Shown here piece after piece: positions 17,231 through 64,000 of a stretch of 64,000 nt of DNA (its first letter is position 1; every line of letters starts with the position of its first letter). The position numbers and the translations under genes were made by a program. The notes below the pieces were generated by a model that made no database searches, was not told the DNA's origin, and saw only the letters and a list, made by a program, of their open reading frames with translations. This stretch comes from Ignavibacteriota bacterium. GTDB taxonomy: Bacteria > Bacteroidota > Ignavibacteria > UBA10030 > CAVZMI01. The stretch spans positions 160,001 through 224,000 of the forward strand of contig CAVZMI010000023.1 of NCBI GenBank assembly GCA_963776275.1, written 5' to 3'.

Positions 17231-19063
17231 TTATCCTCTTAATATTTCATTAATCTTCTGCTCAACATCGGCCGCACGAAGTGGTAATCCTTTGATAAGA
17301 TTTAAACCGACAGCCGGGACAAGGTATTGCGATCGAAGAATCTTGATTAGCTGTCCGTTGTTAATCTCGGGGACTAAAACCTGTTTGAAATTATGGAGAA
17401 TTTCACCGAGATTTTTCGGGAATGGATTAATGTATCGAACCTGGACATGAGAGACCGATTTCCCCCGCTGTCGCATGTTTGTAACGGCCTCTCTGATTGC
17501 TCCGTACGTTCCACCCCATCCGACAATAAGGAGGTCGCCTTCGGTGTCGCCTTCTATTGTTTGAAGGGGGATATCGTTGACAATACGATCGATTTTTTCC
17601 TGGCGGAGTTTTACCATTAAGTGATGATTCTCCGGATCATAGCTGATGTTGCCATTAATATTTGCTTTTTCAAGTCCGCCTATCCGGTGTTCGAGTCCCG
17701 GAGTTCCCGGAATTGCCCAGGGGCGGGCGAGAGTTTTTTCATCACGAATGTACGGTTGGAAGGTGTCCTTGTCGGTGCAAAATTTTACCCTGAGGTCAGG
17801 GAGTGATTCCGGTTCAGGAATTCTCCACGGTTCGGAACCATTTCCCAGATAGCCGTCTGTCAGACAGATGACCGGCGTCATATATTTCAGTGCGATGCGT
17901 GCCGATTCGAAAGCAGCATAGAAGCAGTCAGCCGGACTTGTAGCTGCGATTACAGGGACAGGAGCTTCTCCATTGCGGCCGTACATCGCCTGGAGTAGGT
18001 CACCTTGTTCAGTTTTCGTTGGCAATCCGGTACTTGGCCCGCCGCGCTGGACATCGACGACGACAAGAGGAAGTTCAGTCATGACTGCCAATCCGATGGC
18101 TTCGGTTTTAAGTGAGAGTCCGGGACCGCTTGTTGTCGATGCACCCAGCGCGCCTGCAAACGATGCGCCTATGGCGCTGGTTATACCGGCGATTTCATCC
18201 TCGGCCTGGAATGTCTTCACTCCGGCGTTATTATATTTTGAAAGCTCGTGGAGGATCTCACTTGCAGGAGTGATAGGATAGCTGCCGAGGAACAAGTCTA
18301 ATCCGGCTCGTTGGGCGGCTGCGACCAGACCGAGTGCAGTGGCTTCATTTCCTGTTAAGTTGCGGTATTTCCCTGGTTTCAGTTTAGCAGATTTGACTTC
18401 ATATCGTTCAGTAAATAATTCTGTTGTTTCGCCATAATTCCAGCCGGCTTTTAAAACCCGAAGATTTGACTCTGCGATATCCGGTTTGTTGGCAAATTTC
18501 GTTTTTATCCACTTGATAGACGGTTCCATTGGCCGATCATACAACCAGAACATCACTCCGAGTGCGAAAAAATTCTTTGTACGATCGATCACCTTTGGTG
18601 AGAGTCTCATCCCCGACAACGCCGCTTCGGTCAATTTATTGATATCGATTTTATAGGTTTGATATTTTTTTAGTGACCCGTCATCGAGAGGATTCGATGT
18701 ATAGCCGGCGAGTTTTAGATTTTTATCGTTGAATGACCCCGTGTTTGCAATGATAATTCCGTCTTCGCGTAGTATCCGCAGATTTACTTTCAGTGCAGCC
18801 GGGTTCATCACAACCAGTACATCGCACATATCGCCTGGAGTCATAATCTCGACGCTGCCGAAATGAATTTGAAATCCACTGACGCCTGAAGGTGTACCGG
18901 CGGGTGCACGGATTTCTGCAGGATAATCCGGAAGGGTACTTAAATCGTTCCCGAGAGCGGCTGATGCATTCGTAAAATGGGTCCCGGTGAGCTGCATTCC
19001 GTCACCGGAATCACCGGCGAAGCGTATCGTGACATTGTCAAGCGTCTTAATACTTTTTGCCAT
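17231..19063 (-). CDS. korA: 2-oxoacid:ferredoxin oxidoreductase subunit alpha (gamma-alpha fusion)
   Basis: [34 protein letters not shown]. Confidence 0.9.
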
Positions 19064-20665: not shown

Positions 20666-21085
20666 TTATTCTGTTATCGCGACCACCAGTGGATCTACGA
20701 CGGCTTCACCCGCCAGATCTGGTAATACCGGGGCTGCCGCTGGTTCTTCCTCAGCCCGTGCAACCGAGCGCCGTGCCTTCAGAGCTTTCGTATCCAATTG
20801 TACTGTTAAATAGCGTATGATATTTTCATCGAGCTGGTAGTGACGCTCAAGTTTGGCAACAGCATCACCCTTTGCAGAAAATATGAGAACGATATAGAAG
20901 CCGTTGTTTTTCTTCTGGATAGGATAGGCGAGCCGCTTGCGACCCCATTTCTCGACCGCTGTAACCGTGCTCCCATTCTTGACGAGTAATTCTTGAACGC
21001 GGGCAATGACAGCTTCGGTCTGAGCATCATCAAGCGTTGCGTTAATGATGAACGTTGTCTCGTAGTTACGTGTCAATGTGTCCAT
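20666..21085 (-). CDS. rpsF: 30S ribosomal protein S6
   Basis: YETTFI..WGRKRLAYPI..IIRYL; strong SD ggaggtg before ATG 21085. Confidence 0.97.
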   Translation of the reverse strand: MDTLTRNYETTFIINATLDDAQTEAVIARVQELLVKNGSTVTAVEKWGRKRLAYPIQKKNNGFYIVLIFSAKGDAVAKLERHYQLDENIIRYLTVQLDTKALKARRSVARAEEEPAAAPVLPDLAGEAVVDPLVVAITE

Positions 21086-21269: not shown

Positions 21270-21851
21270 TTATACCTCCGGCCGTGTGTTCCACCGATTC
21301 ATTGCAGCGTCAATGCCTTCTTCGATCCAGTATTGAAGTGCATCCGCTGCCTGAAGAATCATCGCTCGAACACCTTCTCGTTCTTCGGGTATGAAAGGTG
21401 ATAGAACGAAATCAACCGAGTTCAACCGTGTAGCATCCTGTGCCGTGCTTTGTATTCCGCATCTCAAGCGAGGTATTTCCTCACTCTGCAGGTGATAAAT
21501 AATCGATCCCATGCCGTTGTGTCCGCCGTCGCTTCCCTGTGGTCGGAACCGAAGTGTTCCTATCGGCAGATGGACATCATCATAAACAATAATCAGATTA
21601 ATAAGTTCAATTTTAAACCGTTCAACAACATCTCGAACAGCACAGCCGCTATTGTTCATCATTGTTGTCGGTTTGACCAGAACAATATCTTCGTTGTTGA
21701 TATTCCCCGACGCGATCCAGTAATCGCCCTTTCCCGGCCTGAATGAAATTTTCCTCTGCTCGGCTATGGTATCGACAACGGCAAATCCGATATTATGCCG
21801 GGTCTCAGCGTATGCCGATCCAGGATTACCGAGTCCAATAATGATATGCAC
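21270..21851 (-). CDS. pth: Peptidyl-tRNA hydrolase
   Basis: GLGNPG..TRHNIGF..KPTTMMNNSG..GGHNG. Confidence 0.96.
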   Translation of the reverse strand: MHIIIGLGNPGSAYAETRHNIGFAVVDTIAEQRKISFRPGKGDYWIASGNINNEDIVLVKPTTMMNNSGCAVRDVVERFKIELINLIIVYDDVHLPIGTLRFRPQGSDGGHNGMGSIIYHLQSEEIPRLRCGIQSTAQDATRLNSVDFVLSPFIPEEREGVRAMILQAADALQYWIEEGIDAAMNRWNTRPEV

Positions 21852-32605: not shown

Positions 32606-32810
32606 GAAATAATATACGATTGGGATGAATGATAAACAAAGGTAATTTTTTCCTTAAAATAACGGTTAAAAATGACCCATAGAGATTTTTTGACCTGCCC
32701 GCCTTTCTCGTGTTTCTTACGTCTCATGTTCCGTGCTTTTTACGTCCCACGCTCTTTGTGGGGCTCAGTTGAGTAGTGGGATTGGCGGAACGATGAATTT
32801 AAGGATGGCA

Positions 32811-33056
32811 AGCGCCGTAAGCGCGACATGTTAATAGAAAAGCTATCGAAAAACGAAACGAGCCCCATGGGATATACAAATCATAAAGGCGGCATATGTA
32901 ACCTGTTTTCGTTCTATGTAATATAAGGGCTGCGAGATAATAAACAGGCGCCGTCCTGTCCGCCGGAACGTAGTGTAGGCGGAAGGCGCGACATGTTTAT
33001 AGAAAAACCGCCAATGAAACGGTACGAGCCCCCATGGGGGCGGCATGTTGAGATTT
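32811..33056 (+). repeat. Left REP-like palindrome cluster of the REPtron
   Basis: agcgccgtaagcgcgacatgttaatagaaa (32811); gagccccatggg..ggcggcat (32860); gcgccgt..aggcgcgacatgtttatagaaaaaccgccaatgaaacggtacgagccccatgggggcggcatgttgagatt (32948-33056). Confidence 0.8.
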
Positions 33057-33120
33057 ATTAAAGAAATAATTCGCCTGATATATTTTTTTAACTCCAATCA
33101 ATATTTTCATTATTCATGTC

Positions 33121-33588
33121 ATGGCAAACACATTTTCGAAAATCTATTTTCATGTTATATTTTCTGTCCAGAATCGCTTGAATCTCATGTCCCCGGGGGT
33201 CCGTGAAGAAATACAAAAATATATATCCGGGATAGTCACAAATAAAAACCAGAAATTAATATCAATATGTTGCATGCCTGATCATACCCATATTCTACTT
33301 GGATTAAAACCGGATATTTCTGTCTCGACAATTGTAAGAGATATTAAGGCGAATTCTTCCCGCTTTATTAATGAATGTAGATTGGTGAAAGATCGATTTA
33401 ATTGGCAGGAGGGATTCGGTGTATTTTCGTGCGGCGAAGGAGATCTTGATTGGATTATTCATTACATCATGAATCAAGAATTCCATCATAAGAAGAAGAA
33501 TTTTAAAGAAGAATATATTGCGATACTACAGGAATACAATGTTGCGTATAATGAAGAATATCTTTTTAAATGGATCGCGATAGATTGA
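33121..33588 (+). mobile_element. tnpA: IS200-like Y1 HUH transposase, probably REP-associated (RAYT/TnpA-REP)
   Basis: PDHTHIL (HUH), KANSS, WQEGFG, YIMNQ catalytic Tyr; no tnpB; flanked by REP-like repeats. Confidence 0.88.
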
Positions 33589-33602
33589 TTTATCCTTTTT
33601 CC

Positions 33603-33885
33603 ACATATCACCCCGACGGGGTTCATTCCTTTTTTTGTTATGCTTTTCTATAAACATATCACCCCTACGGGGTTTTTGAAATGTTGAATTTCGAGTTTTG
33701 TATTGTGAATACATGAGCGTTGTATGCACGTCATCGGTGAATAATAGTCGGATTGTTAATGAGCGTCGTGGCGCTGAACGTTTCTAGAAAAGCTATTTTG
33801 TGAAAGAGCGCCGTAGGCGCGATATGTTTGTAGAAAAACCGCCAACGAAACGGTACGAGCCCCATGGGGGCGGCATGTTGAGATT
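33603..33885. repeat. Right REP-like palindrome cluster of the REPtron
   Basis: Inverted copies acatatcaccccgacggggtt (33603) and ctataaacatatcacccctacggggttt (33648); direct copy of the left doublet at 33808-33885. Confidence 0.8.
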
Positions 33886-33915
33886 CATCTGTTCGTCTCG
33901 AAGCTGTTAAGTCGA

Positions 33916-61931: not shown

Positions 61932-62184
61932 GCCCAACGTCTAGGCAAACCGCCGTCCTACCCCGATACTATAATAATCAATTCATCTGTGTCGGGGTAG
62001 GGTGGAGCGAGCACTTTACATTTCGCCAACCTTTGTTTTCTCATCGCCTATCCAGTGTGCGCCTGCTCGCCTCGCTCTGCCGAGTATCTCGAGGCGGAGC
62101 GGGTCCGCCATGCTTTATCTTTTGGCGGAAGCGTTTACCCGCCATGTTTCATCTTCTGGCGGGCCGGTTTGCCGTTTGTTAGGC
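61932..62184 (-). repeat. attC site, unusually long (253 bp)
   Basis: Gene strand GCCTAAC-aaac-ggcaaaccg..cggtttgcc-tagac-GTTGGGC; both cores match consensus. Confidence 0.8.
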
Positions 62185-62712: not shown

Positions 62713-62830
62713 GTGAATACCTTCAAGGGATTCGGTATAGGGCCACCAGACTATTGCTTATATGGTCTCCACATGACCTAGCCGCAATAGATGTGCCGCA
62801 AAACGCCTTAAGGAATGAATCTTTGCTTGC

Positions 62831-62936
62831 GCATAACGTCCGCAACAAAAATGCCGTCCCGTTTGCCGCTATGATCGACCAATTCCGTTTGCGGCAAACG
62901 GGATGGTTCATTTTACATTTTTGTTGCTGATATTTT
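62831..62936 (-). repeat. attC-like site with intact R' core and a degenerate or interrupted R'' end
   Basis: Arms gcaacaaaaatg / catttttgttgc, inner stem cccgtttgccgc / gcggcaaacggg; GTTATGC core at 62837-62831. Confidence 0.7.
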
Positions 62937-63008
62937 CTAAAAGGTGCCCCTAAGAGTCAAGAGAAATGAGTATTATATAAGCGCAAACAAACACAACACT
63001 CATTCACT

Positions 63009-63038
63009 TGAGCCAAAGGCTCATCAGCCTACGGCTGA
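63009..63038. repeat. 30-bp double-hairpin mini-element, copy 1
   Basis: tgagcc-aaa-ggctca + tcagcc-tac-ggctga. Confidence 0.8.
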
Positions 63039-63055
63039 GACTCAAAGGAGGCCAT

Positions 63056-64000
63056 ATGTATTACACCGGAGTTGATCTTCATCGCCGTCTCATCGTTCTG
63101 TGCACAGTTGATGAGAGTGGAACAATAGTAGCGCGAGCTCGTATGCGAACAGAACCTGAAAAGATTATTGGCTATTTCTCTCAATGGGCCGCTCCGCAAA
63201 AGGCTGTTGTTGAATGTACAGGGAGTTGGTATTGGTTCTGTGATCTACTCCGCACAAACGGAATTAAAATTCTACTGGCTCACGCAAAATACCTCAAAGC
63301 TATATCATATGCAAAAGTGAAAACCGATGCAGTCGATGCGCAAACGTTGGCACAGTTATTACGCATGGGGTATATTCCCGAAGCTCACCAGCTTTCACCC
63401 GAATATCGTTCTATGCGTGATCTTCTCAGACAACGAATGGTGATGGAACATAAACGGACGAACATGATACAACGCATCGCAAGCATCCTGGCTCAGTTCA
63501 ACATCACCAGCTATCCCGTTGCCCCGTATCAATCTGGATTTGCTGATTTTCTTAACGAATGCCCCATACCGGCAGAATATCGAATGACACTATTGATGTA
63601 CCACCAGCAATGTCTCCAGGCAACCGAACACAGAAAACAGTTAGAAAAATACTTTAAAACGAAACTACGCCCCACACCGGTTGTTCAGCTCCTGATGTCC
63701 ATCCCCGGCATCGGAGATATCACCGGTTCAATCATTGCAATGGAAACAGGGGATATCAATCGCTTTGCTGATGCCAAGCATTATTGCTCGTACTGTCGAC
63801 TCGTACCCGGAGCAAAAGACTCAGGTGGTAAACATAGCCATCGTTCGGGCTCAAAAGATGGCAACCAGTATCTCAAGTATGCCTTCACCGAAGCTGCCAT
63901 CTCCGCCTGAGGCGGATGCGCCTCTGGCGCAAAAGCGATGATGTATTATCCCGAGATCAAGCACTTCGCGACTCAACTGGAACGACGATCTACAAAAAGA
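63056..64000 (+). mobile_element. IS110-family recombinase/transposase, interrupted by an in-frame 30-bp insertion carrying TGA; runs off the window
   Basis: RuvC-like GVDLH / VVECTG / KTDAVDA; C-terminal SIPGIG..GDINRF..DSGGK; SD ggagg before ATG 63056; frame resumes KAMMYYPEIK after the insertion. Confidence 0.92.
63902..63931. repeat. 30-bp double-hairpin mini-element, copy 2 (inside the IS110 ORF)
   Basis: tccgcc-tga-ggcgga + tgcgcc-tct-ggcgca, located exactly between codons ATC and AAA. Confidence 0.88.

Follow-up and report, generated by a model that had tools for sequence, protein, structure and literature searches.

An apparently undescribed 30-bp double-hairpin insertion element in an Ignavibacteriota IS110 gene and in other genomes

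Rickettsia palindromic elements are reportedly palindromic selfish DNA of roughly 100-150 bp, lineage-restricted and sorted into sequence families (RPE-1 onward), that inserts in frame in coding genes and is tolerated there as an extra peptide. The small dispersed repeats of Nostoc are likewise said to be mobile, at 21-27 nt and with hairpin potential. Here we describe a 30-bp sequence (the 30-mer) formed by the tandem pattern T-NN-GCC-N3-GGC-NN-A x2, two copies of which lie in one IS110-family insertion sequence (IS) at the end of a 64,000-nucleotide stretch of an Ignavibacteriota genome. This stretch, the window, is positions 160001-224000 of contig C23 of genome G000, which has 3.70 Mb in 38 contigs and 45% G+C. 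The 30-mer resembles the Rickettsia elements in being tolerated in frame, in a glycerate kinase of genome G234 and a pyridoxal phosphate (PLP)-dependent enzyme of G248 and G247, but it is exactly 30 bp long and crosses phyla; from the Nostoc repeats it differs in lineage and sequence.

Closest by form are the double-hairpin elements (DHEs) of fungal mitochondria (PMC10085805, summarising Paquin, Laforest and Lang 2000 and Bullerwell 2003). These organellar elements, found in only a few fungi, are short and GC-rich, consist of two hairpins, occur in spacers and rRNA genes, are thought to be mobile and can be nearly the same in different species. DHEs and the 30-mer have two adjacent hairpins, dispersal and cross-species identity in common, a likeness of form alone, whereas the portions of that source drawn on here describe no T-Y/R-A target (the slash marks the insertion point), fixed 30-bp length or linked nuclease. 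Repetitive extragenic palindromes (REPs) and REPINs are small palindromic dispersed repeats, with paired stems and sometimes found in genes, that are regarded as non-autonomous mobile DNA; according to the portions used of PMC3116915 and PMC3733652, REPs bear an unpaired GTAG or CGTC tag, are single imperfect palindromes of 20-40 bp, usually in inverted doublets with a spacer, and flank a gene for a REP-associated tyrosine transposase (RAYT). The 30-mer, in contrast, is a pair of abutting perfect triloop hairpins and does not flank genes of Y1 transposases, whose loci carry a different hairpin-plus-tail repeat. No GTAG or CGTC tag was found in the flanks of 55 copies, which show only T-Y/.../R-A, or in an alignment of 56 copies. 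The 30-mer is also not of the IS200/IS605-derived (PATE-like) kind, as its two strands look the same (RRA in the first loop, TYY in the second) and its target is symmetric, and the target-site duplication of DDE-type miniature inverted-repeat elements was absent from four filled/empty pairs. No Rfam family matched the 30-mers, full-text literature searches yielded no description of the 30-bp element, and three typical 15-mers had no match in the texts searched. The 30-bp double-hairpin insertion element is widespread and apparently so far undescribed.

Two 30-mers in one IS110 element

Copy 1 (63009..63038, no strand) reads TGAGCC-aaa-GGCTCA TCAGCC-tac-GGCTGA and lies 17 bp before the ATG, within the 5' leader of the IS110. 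Copy 2 (63902..63931, no strand) reads TCCGCC-tga-GGCGGA TGCGCC-tct-GGCGCA and lies in frame within the recombinase gene; the letters of both are exactly those reported in the initial annotation of this DNA. The open reading frame (ORF) list places the IS110-family recombinase gene, whose homologues carry PF01548 and PF02371, at 63056..63910 on the plus strand, where it comprises the N-terminal 284 codons and ends at the TGA that forms the first loop of copy 2. The same reading frame, severed by copy 2, continues on the plus strand at 63932..64000 (KAMMYYPEIK...), as seen when the read-through translation (TGA read as X) was aligned with intact homologues, then leaves the window and extends to about C23:224185. 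Upstream of copy 1, the left-end leader of the IS occupies 62927..63008 (plus strand), and alignable similarity to three related elements of other genomes (L003, L004 and L005) starts near its beginning.

Comparison with uninterrupted IS110 elements, which the initial annotation had proposed as a check, gave exact 30-bp junctions for both copies. A search at E <= 1e-20 returned 3510 IS110 homologues, the top full-length ones being 362 aa long and 93% and 92% identical to the 284-aa query; named relatives were Ignavibacteriales. The codons SA-stop-GGCASGA, exactly ten, were absent from 12/12 intact homologues (alignment A1, 74-92% identity), which run ..TEAAI/KAMM.., and excision of copy 2 therefore restores an uninterrupted ..EAAI/KAMM.. 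just as had been claimed. Copy 1 corresponds to an exact 30-column gap in 3/3 of the related elements of other genomes. Neither copy is accompanied by a target duplication, and the junctions of both cannot be shifted because neither terminal base of the insert matches the base beyond it. The window IS110 has no other copy in G000, where the IS is single-copy.

Contigs from two metagenomes (small shares, 0.15 and 0.13) piled up only over 63900-63941, to a depth of 46-178 compared with about 5 elsewhere, and their unrelated flanks began at 63899-63902 and 63931-63941, in agreement with the boundaries of copy 2. Among these contigs, the only material available from the two metagenomes, none spanned either 30-mer. 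A further 284-aa protein, P0052, was considered as a second truncation by a 30-mer and rejected, being a frameshift variant.

That one IS110 had been hit twice holds for the window but is not peculiar to it. Eighty related IS110 loci from metagenomes (202,256 bases) held 10 copies with at most one defect, a density about ten times that of G000 by our own arithmetic. These 30-mers occupy four or more sites, in the 5' region, at two sites of the coding sequence and at the 3' non-coding end, which makes this IS family a habitual host. At the coding site interrupted in the window, a metagenome copy with an ATA loop reads through as TESAI[SAIGGCAFGA]KAMM, and a second copy, with TGA, lies between ..EFKTF and KGI... 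The common coding site is either a hot spot or the trace of an old insertion later lost precisely. Another IS110 lineage, whose protein is 46% identical, is present in genome G002 in four copies (C1:47109, C2:119891, C2:152928 and C2:930182), each with a 30-mer 14 bp upstream of the ATG and abutting the ribosome-binding site AAAGGAG. IS110 was rejected as the mobiliser itself, as 0/11 genomes of family f2 had an IS110 match, yet 9/11 had the element; across the order, 54/277 genomes had an IS110 match.

Several repeats surround the IS. Near its C-terminus, beyond the window, the IS110 protein reads WPSRPCREKPVR where homologues have WPR, a three-column gap and SRKPVR (L001:2113-2129, equal to G000 C23:224113-224129), and the underlying DNA is a 17-nt hairpin, tcccgac-cct-gtcggga. 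Upstream of the IS, short segments with 73-98% identity to sequences in many genomes of the order lie at about 62788-62843 and 62827-62933 and represent a further dispersed repeat family adjoining the insertion site. Downstream, a GC-rich nested palindromic repeat (L001:2455-2561, equal to G000 C23:224455-224561) gave a sub-threshold Rfam match to anti-hemB (29.2 bits against a gathering score of 49.5) and is probably just a REP-like hairpin.

Structure, distribution and target sites of the 30-mer

The 30-mers are far more frequent than chance. The tandem pattern matched twice in the window compared with 0.00 expected (0/100 shuffles), and the four single-unit matches of the window are the four halves of copies 1 and 2; the search against shuffled sequence that had been suggested, run here on the window, bore the pattern out, and the genome holds 17 perfect tandem copies. 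When any two abutting perfect hairpins with 6-bp stems and 3-nt loops were sought in G000, 17 were found and all 17 had the T-NN-GCC...GGC-NN-A form. Perfectly paired NN positions occurred in 70/99 single-unit matches of G000, against 1 in 16 expected by our own arithmetic. Degraded copies were scarce there, with 17 perfect copies and 1, 2 and 4 with one, two and three defects.

Not every resemblance proved to be the element. A 15-bp half-unit had been placed in the C-terminal domain of a CotH protein, and no unit with at most one defect was found in either type IX secretion system (T9SS)-type C-terminal domain of the window. The tccgcc/ggcgga stems noted at about 32959 and 62104 are present, but their loops of 13-16 nt make them another architecture; the latter belongs to two direct copies, within 62100-62180, of a roughly 34-nt unit with a CCGCC...GGCGG stem and a 14-nt loop, atgctttatctttt and atgtttcatcttct. 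A unit with one defect at 18164, in the conserved SAIGA motif of a 613-aa ORF that we take to be a 2-oxoacid:ferredoxin oxidoreductase subunit, was attributed to chance. A link to the integron-like array at C32:78528-80790 was rejected, as no 30-mer occurs on contig C32. Inspection by eye of 65 single-unit matches in G000 (36 perfect, 29 imperfect) revealed no convincing purine-loop...pyrimidine-loop pair that might bound a larger autonomous element.

Alignment of 56 copies (45 distinct) indicated that structure is conserved over sequence, as had been proposed. T1, G4-C6, G10-C12, A15, T16, G19-C21, G25-C27 and A30 are invariant by selection of the copies, and A9 and T22 are nearly so. The NN positions, which the search pattern left free, so that their covariation was not built in, were paired within each 15-mer in 98.3% of cells compared with 82.0% in shuffles (0/500); double-sided changes numbered 87 cells against 37.6 expected, and the covariation score was 0.351 against 0.079, the stems thus being kept by compensatory change. 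Pairing of unit 1 with unit 2 in a single long hairpin was no better than in shuffles (80.9 versus 80.7%; 230/500). Since NN covary within each 15-mer and not between them, what is conserved is two separate self-paired hairpins, which favours a single strand in folded form, or extruded hairpins, over simple reading of duplex half-sites. The first loop, read on either strand, is rich in purines (AAA 37, AGA 24 and GGA 23 of 110) and the second in pyrimidines, and the element therefore looks alike from both ends. As single-stranded DNA (ssDNA), copies 1 and 2 of the window had predicted folding energies of -10.1 and -13.4 kcal/mol (z -5.4 and -4.3); the two-hairpin fold was predicted for copy 1 alone, and for both copies once 10-nt flanks were added.

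The pattern occurred in 128/277 genomes of the order, with 952 copies and a maximum of 42 per genome, while the reversed control pattern occurred in 0/277. A phylum sample of 401 genomes placed it in G000 and 22/38 others of its order, 4/60 genomes of the class's other orders and 1/302 of other classes, this last being G297, with 18 copies. A scan of all prokaryotes, with one genome per species, matched at least 120 stretches, of which 80 were examined. Among the matches listed for these 80 there were 85 matches, 59 with both units fully paired, and the fully paired copies came from many lineages of the candidate phyla radiation (CPR/Patescibacteria), Kiritimatiellae, Verrucomicrobiota, Gammaproteobacteria, Omnitrophota and other phyla, as well as from one Woesearchaeota archaeon. 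Nine of the listed matches had neither unit paired and look like chance, being mostly in stretches of 62-74% G+C, including Streptomyces. Distant phyla share near-identical 30-mers.

Four presence/absence comparisons gave exact 30-bp boundaries without target duplication: the IS110 coding sequence, the IS110 leader, a tRNA-Ser gene, and a site that is filled in the congener G001 and empty in G000 at ttttctac/caagattcc. Sequence comparison thus supports the 30-mer as a mobile, non-coding mini-element. Two further sites are common to G000 and G001, with one decaying in G000, and at locus L046 one copy is nested within another. Across 110 half-sites of 55 copies, base -2 was T in 71% and base -1 was C in 56% or T in 36%, giving the symmetric target T-Y/R-A. 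Landing places include spacers, other repeats, tRNA copies and coding sequences. An unexplained extra repeat of 11 bp of the flank is present at one site in G001.

Within G000, 7/17 copies (C7:8255, C8:18639, C10:33826, C22:5990, C28:51610, C28:68296 and C35:2095) lie in one roughly 300-bp repeat family with the motifs ggacac and ttttcttttctcggtggct, in which adjacent sites at ACAC/AAAG were used, the C8 copy being at the neighbouring one. Most of the 42 copies of G090 are one sequence at the tip of a longer palindrome (..cctgaactt[30]gtttcagg..; L039, L044, L049), a composite of 30-mer and palindrome that multiplied in this genome. Insertion at the centre of larger palindromes as a general rule was rejected, as flank complementarity was barely above random (mode 3 of 10) and the rule was true of G090 only.

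Candidate enzymes and rival explanations

On balance, and with no great confidence, we lean towards reading the 30-mers as a 2-fold-symmetric mobile mini-element whose folded form is acted on and which is moved in trans, with a GIY-YIG nuclease as the leading candidate enzyme. The element comprises two abutting 15-nt hairpins, each T-NN-GCC-loop-GGC-N'N'-A, and the covariation suggests that the form acted on has each 15-mer self-folded, as ssDNA or as extruded hairpins. The two stems could stack into a dumbbell, bringing both flanks together. Less firmly, a structure-recognising enzyme may move the element in trans, most plausibly a stand-alone GIY-YIG nuclease of roughly 70-100 residues encoded in cassettes beside tRNA genes and hairpin-split tRNA fragments. 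IS110 elements and other repeats would then ferry copies between genomes.

The candidacy of the small GIY-YIG/tRNA cassettes comes from their genomic association with the element. G000 has 13 small GIY-YIG ORFs besides uvrC, five of which are full-length, starting near the first codon of the ORF, and encode 94-97 aa. A perfect unit lay within 300 bp of 6/13 of these genes (3/10 loci), compared with 1.0% of 20,000 random intervals, and a tRNA gene lay within 400 bp of 5/10 loci. At C37:20634-21283 the order is a tRNA-Ser 5' part split by a 30-mer, a GIY-YIG ORF at 20836-21036 and an intact tRNA-Ser; the duplicate 5' part of tRNA-Ser(GGA) matches the intact gene throughout, apart from the 30-mer exactly at GGTC/GAAT. 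In five other genomes of the order a unit lay within 300 bp of 5/30 GIY-YIG loci, and in other lineages a GIY-YIG ORF lay within 273 bp of a 30-mer at 4/55 loci, with a tRNA gene adjoining 4/5 of the checked loci of this kind.

The cassettes show two further arrangements. At G000 C10:40586-42050 four 349-bp units, arrayed in tandem after an intact tRNA-Met, each consist of a small GIY-YIG ORF and a tRNA-Met-like copy whose D loop is replaced by the 15-nt unit TCCGCC-gaa-GGCGGA. At C37:20738-20810 and 21306-21385 the T arm of a tRNA (gggttc/gaatccc) is split by a long-loop double hairpin, TCAGCC-N19-GGCTGA then TCCGCC-N20-GGCGGA, with stems as in the 30-mer family and loops of about 20 nt.

Within the order, the element was found in a growing share of genomes as GIY-YIG matches increased, from 15% at 0-2 to 28% at 3-4, 64% at 5-7, 73% at 8-10 and 81% at 11 or more, and copy number correlated with GIY-YIG matches (rho 0.52). 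The element was present in 100/144 genomes with at least five matches and in 28/133 with fewer. This held among genomes with a Y1 gene (88/124 versus 20/55) and among those without (12/20 versus 8/78), and the IS110 control was associated with the element at an odds ratio (OR) of 1.75.

A number of observations weigh against a GIY-YIG enzyme as mobiliser. Only 1/20 copies in G000 and 1/39 loci in relatives are near a GIY-YIG gene, and no strict unit lies near 7/13 GIY-YIG genes in G000 or 25/30 elsewhere. Ten genomes with at least nine GIY-YIG matches have no copy, while G050 has 20 copies and no GIY-YIG match (at only 67% completeness) and G137 has 2 matches for its 7 copies. It may simply be that repeat-rich genomes are rich in both features, and the genomes are related, the associations being computed without phylogenetic correction; Y1 presence correlates with the element too (OR 5.9). 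Part of the copy number, moreover, comes from the multiplication of host repeats, as the longer palindrome around the G090 copies indicates. GIY-YIG enzymes hydrolyse DNA and are not known to form a covalent intermediate, which leaves a seamless 30-bp insertion unexplained. Small genes for free-standing GIY-YIG homing endonucleases, SegB of the phage T4 tRNA cluster being one, sit among tRNA genes and spread as selfish DNA, the nuclease gene being copied by repair from a homologous template, but homing does not account for solo 30-bp insertions at non-homologous sites. On sequence evidence, the GIY-YIG/tRNA cassettes are a better candidate than Y1, still unproven. We offer only tentatively, and as doubtful in its full extent, that no transposable unit smaller than the 30-mer is known from cellular genomes, and that tRNA-dwelling stand-alone GIY-YIG nucleases excise it as a 30-nt dumbbell or an extruded double hairpin and paste it at T-Y/R-A. 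Carried by their cassettes and by IS110, it would have travelled between bacterial phyla and entered at least one archaeon, and it would seed 10-residue Ser/Ala/Gly loops in proteins and knock out other mobile elements.

The initial annotation had suggested mobilisation by the Y1 transposase at 33121, in which case the 30-mer would be the minimal two-hairpin substrate of an HUH Y1 (IS200/RAYT-like) enzyme and would move as ssDNA without target duplication. We consider this unlikely. The gene at 33121-33588 is indeed a PF01797 member (E 8e-26), and the element was found in 108/179 genomes with Y1 compared with 20/98 without, an odds ratio of 5.9 that exceeds the IS110 control. Y1 genes are also flanked by GC hairpins with a 5-bp stem and a 3-nt loop, variable in stem but paired, in a geometry like that of the 15-mer unit. 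In the window the Y1 gene is bracketed by its own repeat at 32800-33060 and 33590-33890, where GATATGTTTRTAGAAAA comes after a GC hairpin with a 5-bp stem and a loop of GTA/TAC or GAC, and hairpin-plus-tail repeats like it flank Y1 genes of other genomes, with stems that differ and stay paired. The conserved tail GATATGTTTRTAGAAAA, however, is absent from the 30-mers, and the Y1-flanking hairpins are therefore a different repeat family. The 30-mer is 2-fold symmetric, unlike the strand-asymmetric ends of IS200/IS605, whose insertion is 3' of a fixed tetra- or pentanucleotide. The HUH, WQ and YxxxQxxHH motifs of the window's Y1 protein are those of subclass 1.2, for which the portion of Quentin et al. 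2018 (PMC6006769) drawn on here gives a low-copy class without assigned repeat or ends.

The distribution of the two genes speaks further against Y1. G000 has four Y1 paralogues, two of them broken, and a copy with one defect lies 868 bp from the Y1 gene of contig C27, and a 30-mer with one defect about 350 bp from a Y1 gene of G297; yet no 30-mer with at most two defects was found in 12 Y1 loci, no perfect unit in six Y1 loci of another scan, and no Y1 gene in 55 other-lineage loci or 39 loci of the order around copies (phmmer, one query). G028, which is 99% complete in 10 contigs and has 11 copies, had no PF01797 match at E 0.01, and conversely the G297 relatives G285, G289 and G293 have 1-7 Y1 matches and no copy. 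G297 itself is not discriminating, since its relatives have Y1 genes as well. Given at least five GIY-YIG matches, Y1 adds little (88/124 with it versus 12/20 without). The correlation with HUH genes that had been put forward as a check was observed for Y1 presence, but copies without Y1 and Y1 without copies both occur.

Less likely again is passive spread with no dedicated enzyme, in which 30-mers would travel inside IS110, tRNA cassettes and repeats and reach new sites by template switching at stalled hairpins or by repeat recombination. Template switching is known to make the stems of quasi-palindromes perfect, and carriage of this kind would suit the 7/17 copies in one repeat family, the longer palindromic flanks common to the G090 copies, the four G002 IS110 copies and the 10 copies in metagenome IS110 loci. 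Microhomology events should, however, vary in their endpoints, whereas the same T...A boundaries recur in all unrelated contexts, including the four clean filled/empty pairs and two enzymes; the defined T-Y/R-A preference and the copies in unique genes without a surrounding repeat also argue against it. Very improbable is an immobile functional motif (a protein-binding palindrome, terminator or RNA stabiliser) that arose locally many times and was kept by selection, which would fit the many copies in 5' leaders or just after a tRNA, the two IS110 lineages with a 30-mer directly upstream of the ribosome-binding site and the perfect stems, but not exact 30-bp presence/absence inside the conserved coding sequence of unrelated enzymes and a transposase (with a loop or a stop as the result), near-identical 30-mers in distant phyla, or the lack of an Rfam match.

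Effects on genes and implications

Most copies in G000 lie in spacers, often in 5' leaders. Five copies lie in long open frames, counting distinct copies of G000 and of the fetched loci; in one of these cases, on contig C7 of G000, the probable start codon of the 735-codon frame comes after the 30-mer. The 30-bp length preserves the reading frame, and the loop sequence decides the outcome. The proposal that the unit can add peptides to proteins was supported by 10-residue insertions aligned in two enzymes: 4/4 congeners (63-71% identical) lack ten residues that the glycerate kinase of G234 contains, and the PLP-dependent enzyme of G248 has ten residues that are absent in G249 (77% identical) and present, with 4/10 changed, in G247 (95% identical to that of G248). 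Sequence alone points to apparent insertions in a T9SS C-terminal domain (L051; NPF/SAKGGSASGG/N), an RHS protein (L032) and a uvrC-like gene (L228). In the last, the 30-mer (L228:1642-1671, G119 C33) lies within the GIY-YIG region of a 658-codon frame, where the family match spans 258 bp compared with 231 bp in other genomes. A TGA loop instead yields a stop, and the window's IS110 recombinase, truncated in this way, bears out the accompanying proposal that the unit can inactivate mobile elements.

If this reading of the 30-mer is right, pure structure within 30 bp suffices for mobile-DNA behaviour. This length is well below the size expected for a double-stranded circle or a classical transposase synapse, which would point to a single-strand or cruciform mechanism not yet described in bacteria. 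The link to tiny GIY-YIG proteins offers a directly testable candidate enzyme and a possible structure-specific DNA tool, and the presence of the element in many phyla of uncultured bacteria would make it a marker of horizontal exchange. Annotation pipelines would register it only as odd indels or premature stops. By inserting exactly 10 codons into conserved enzymes the element would supply variation in protein loops, and it would knock out genes, including mobile elements such as the IS110 of the window.

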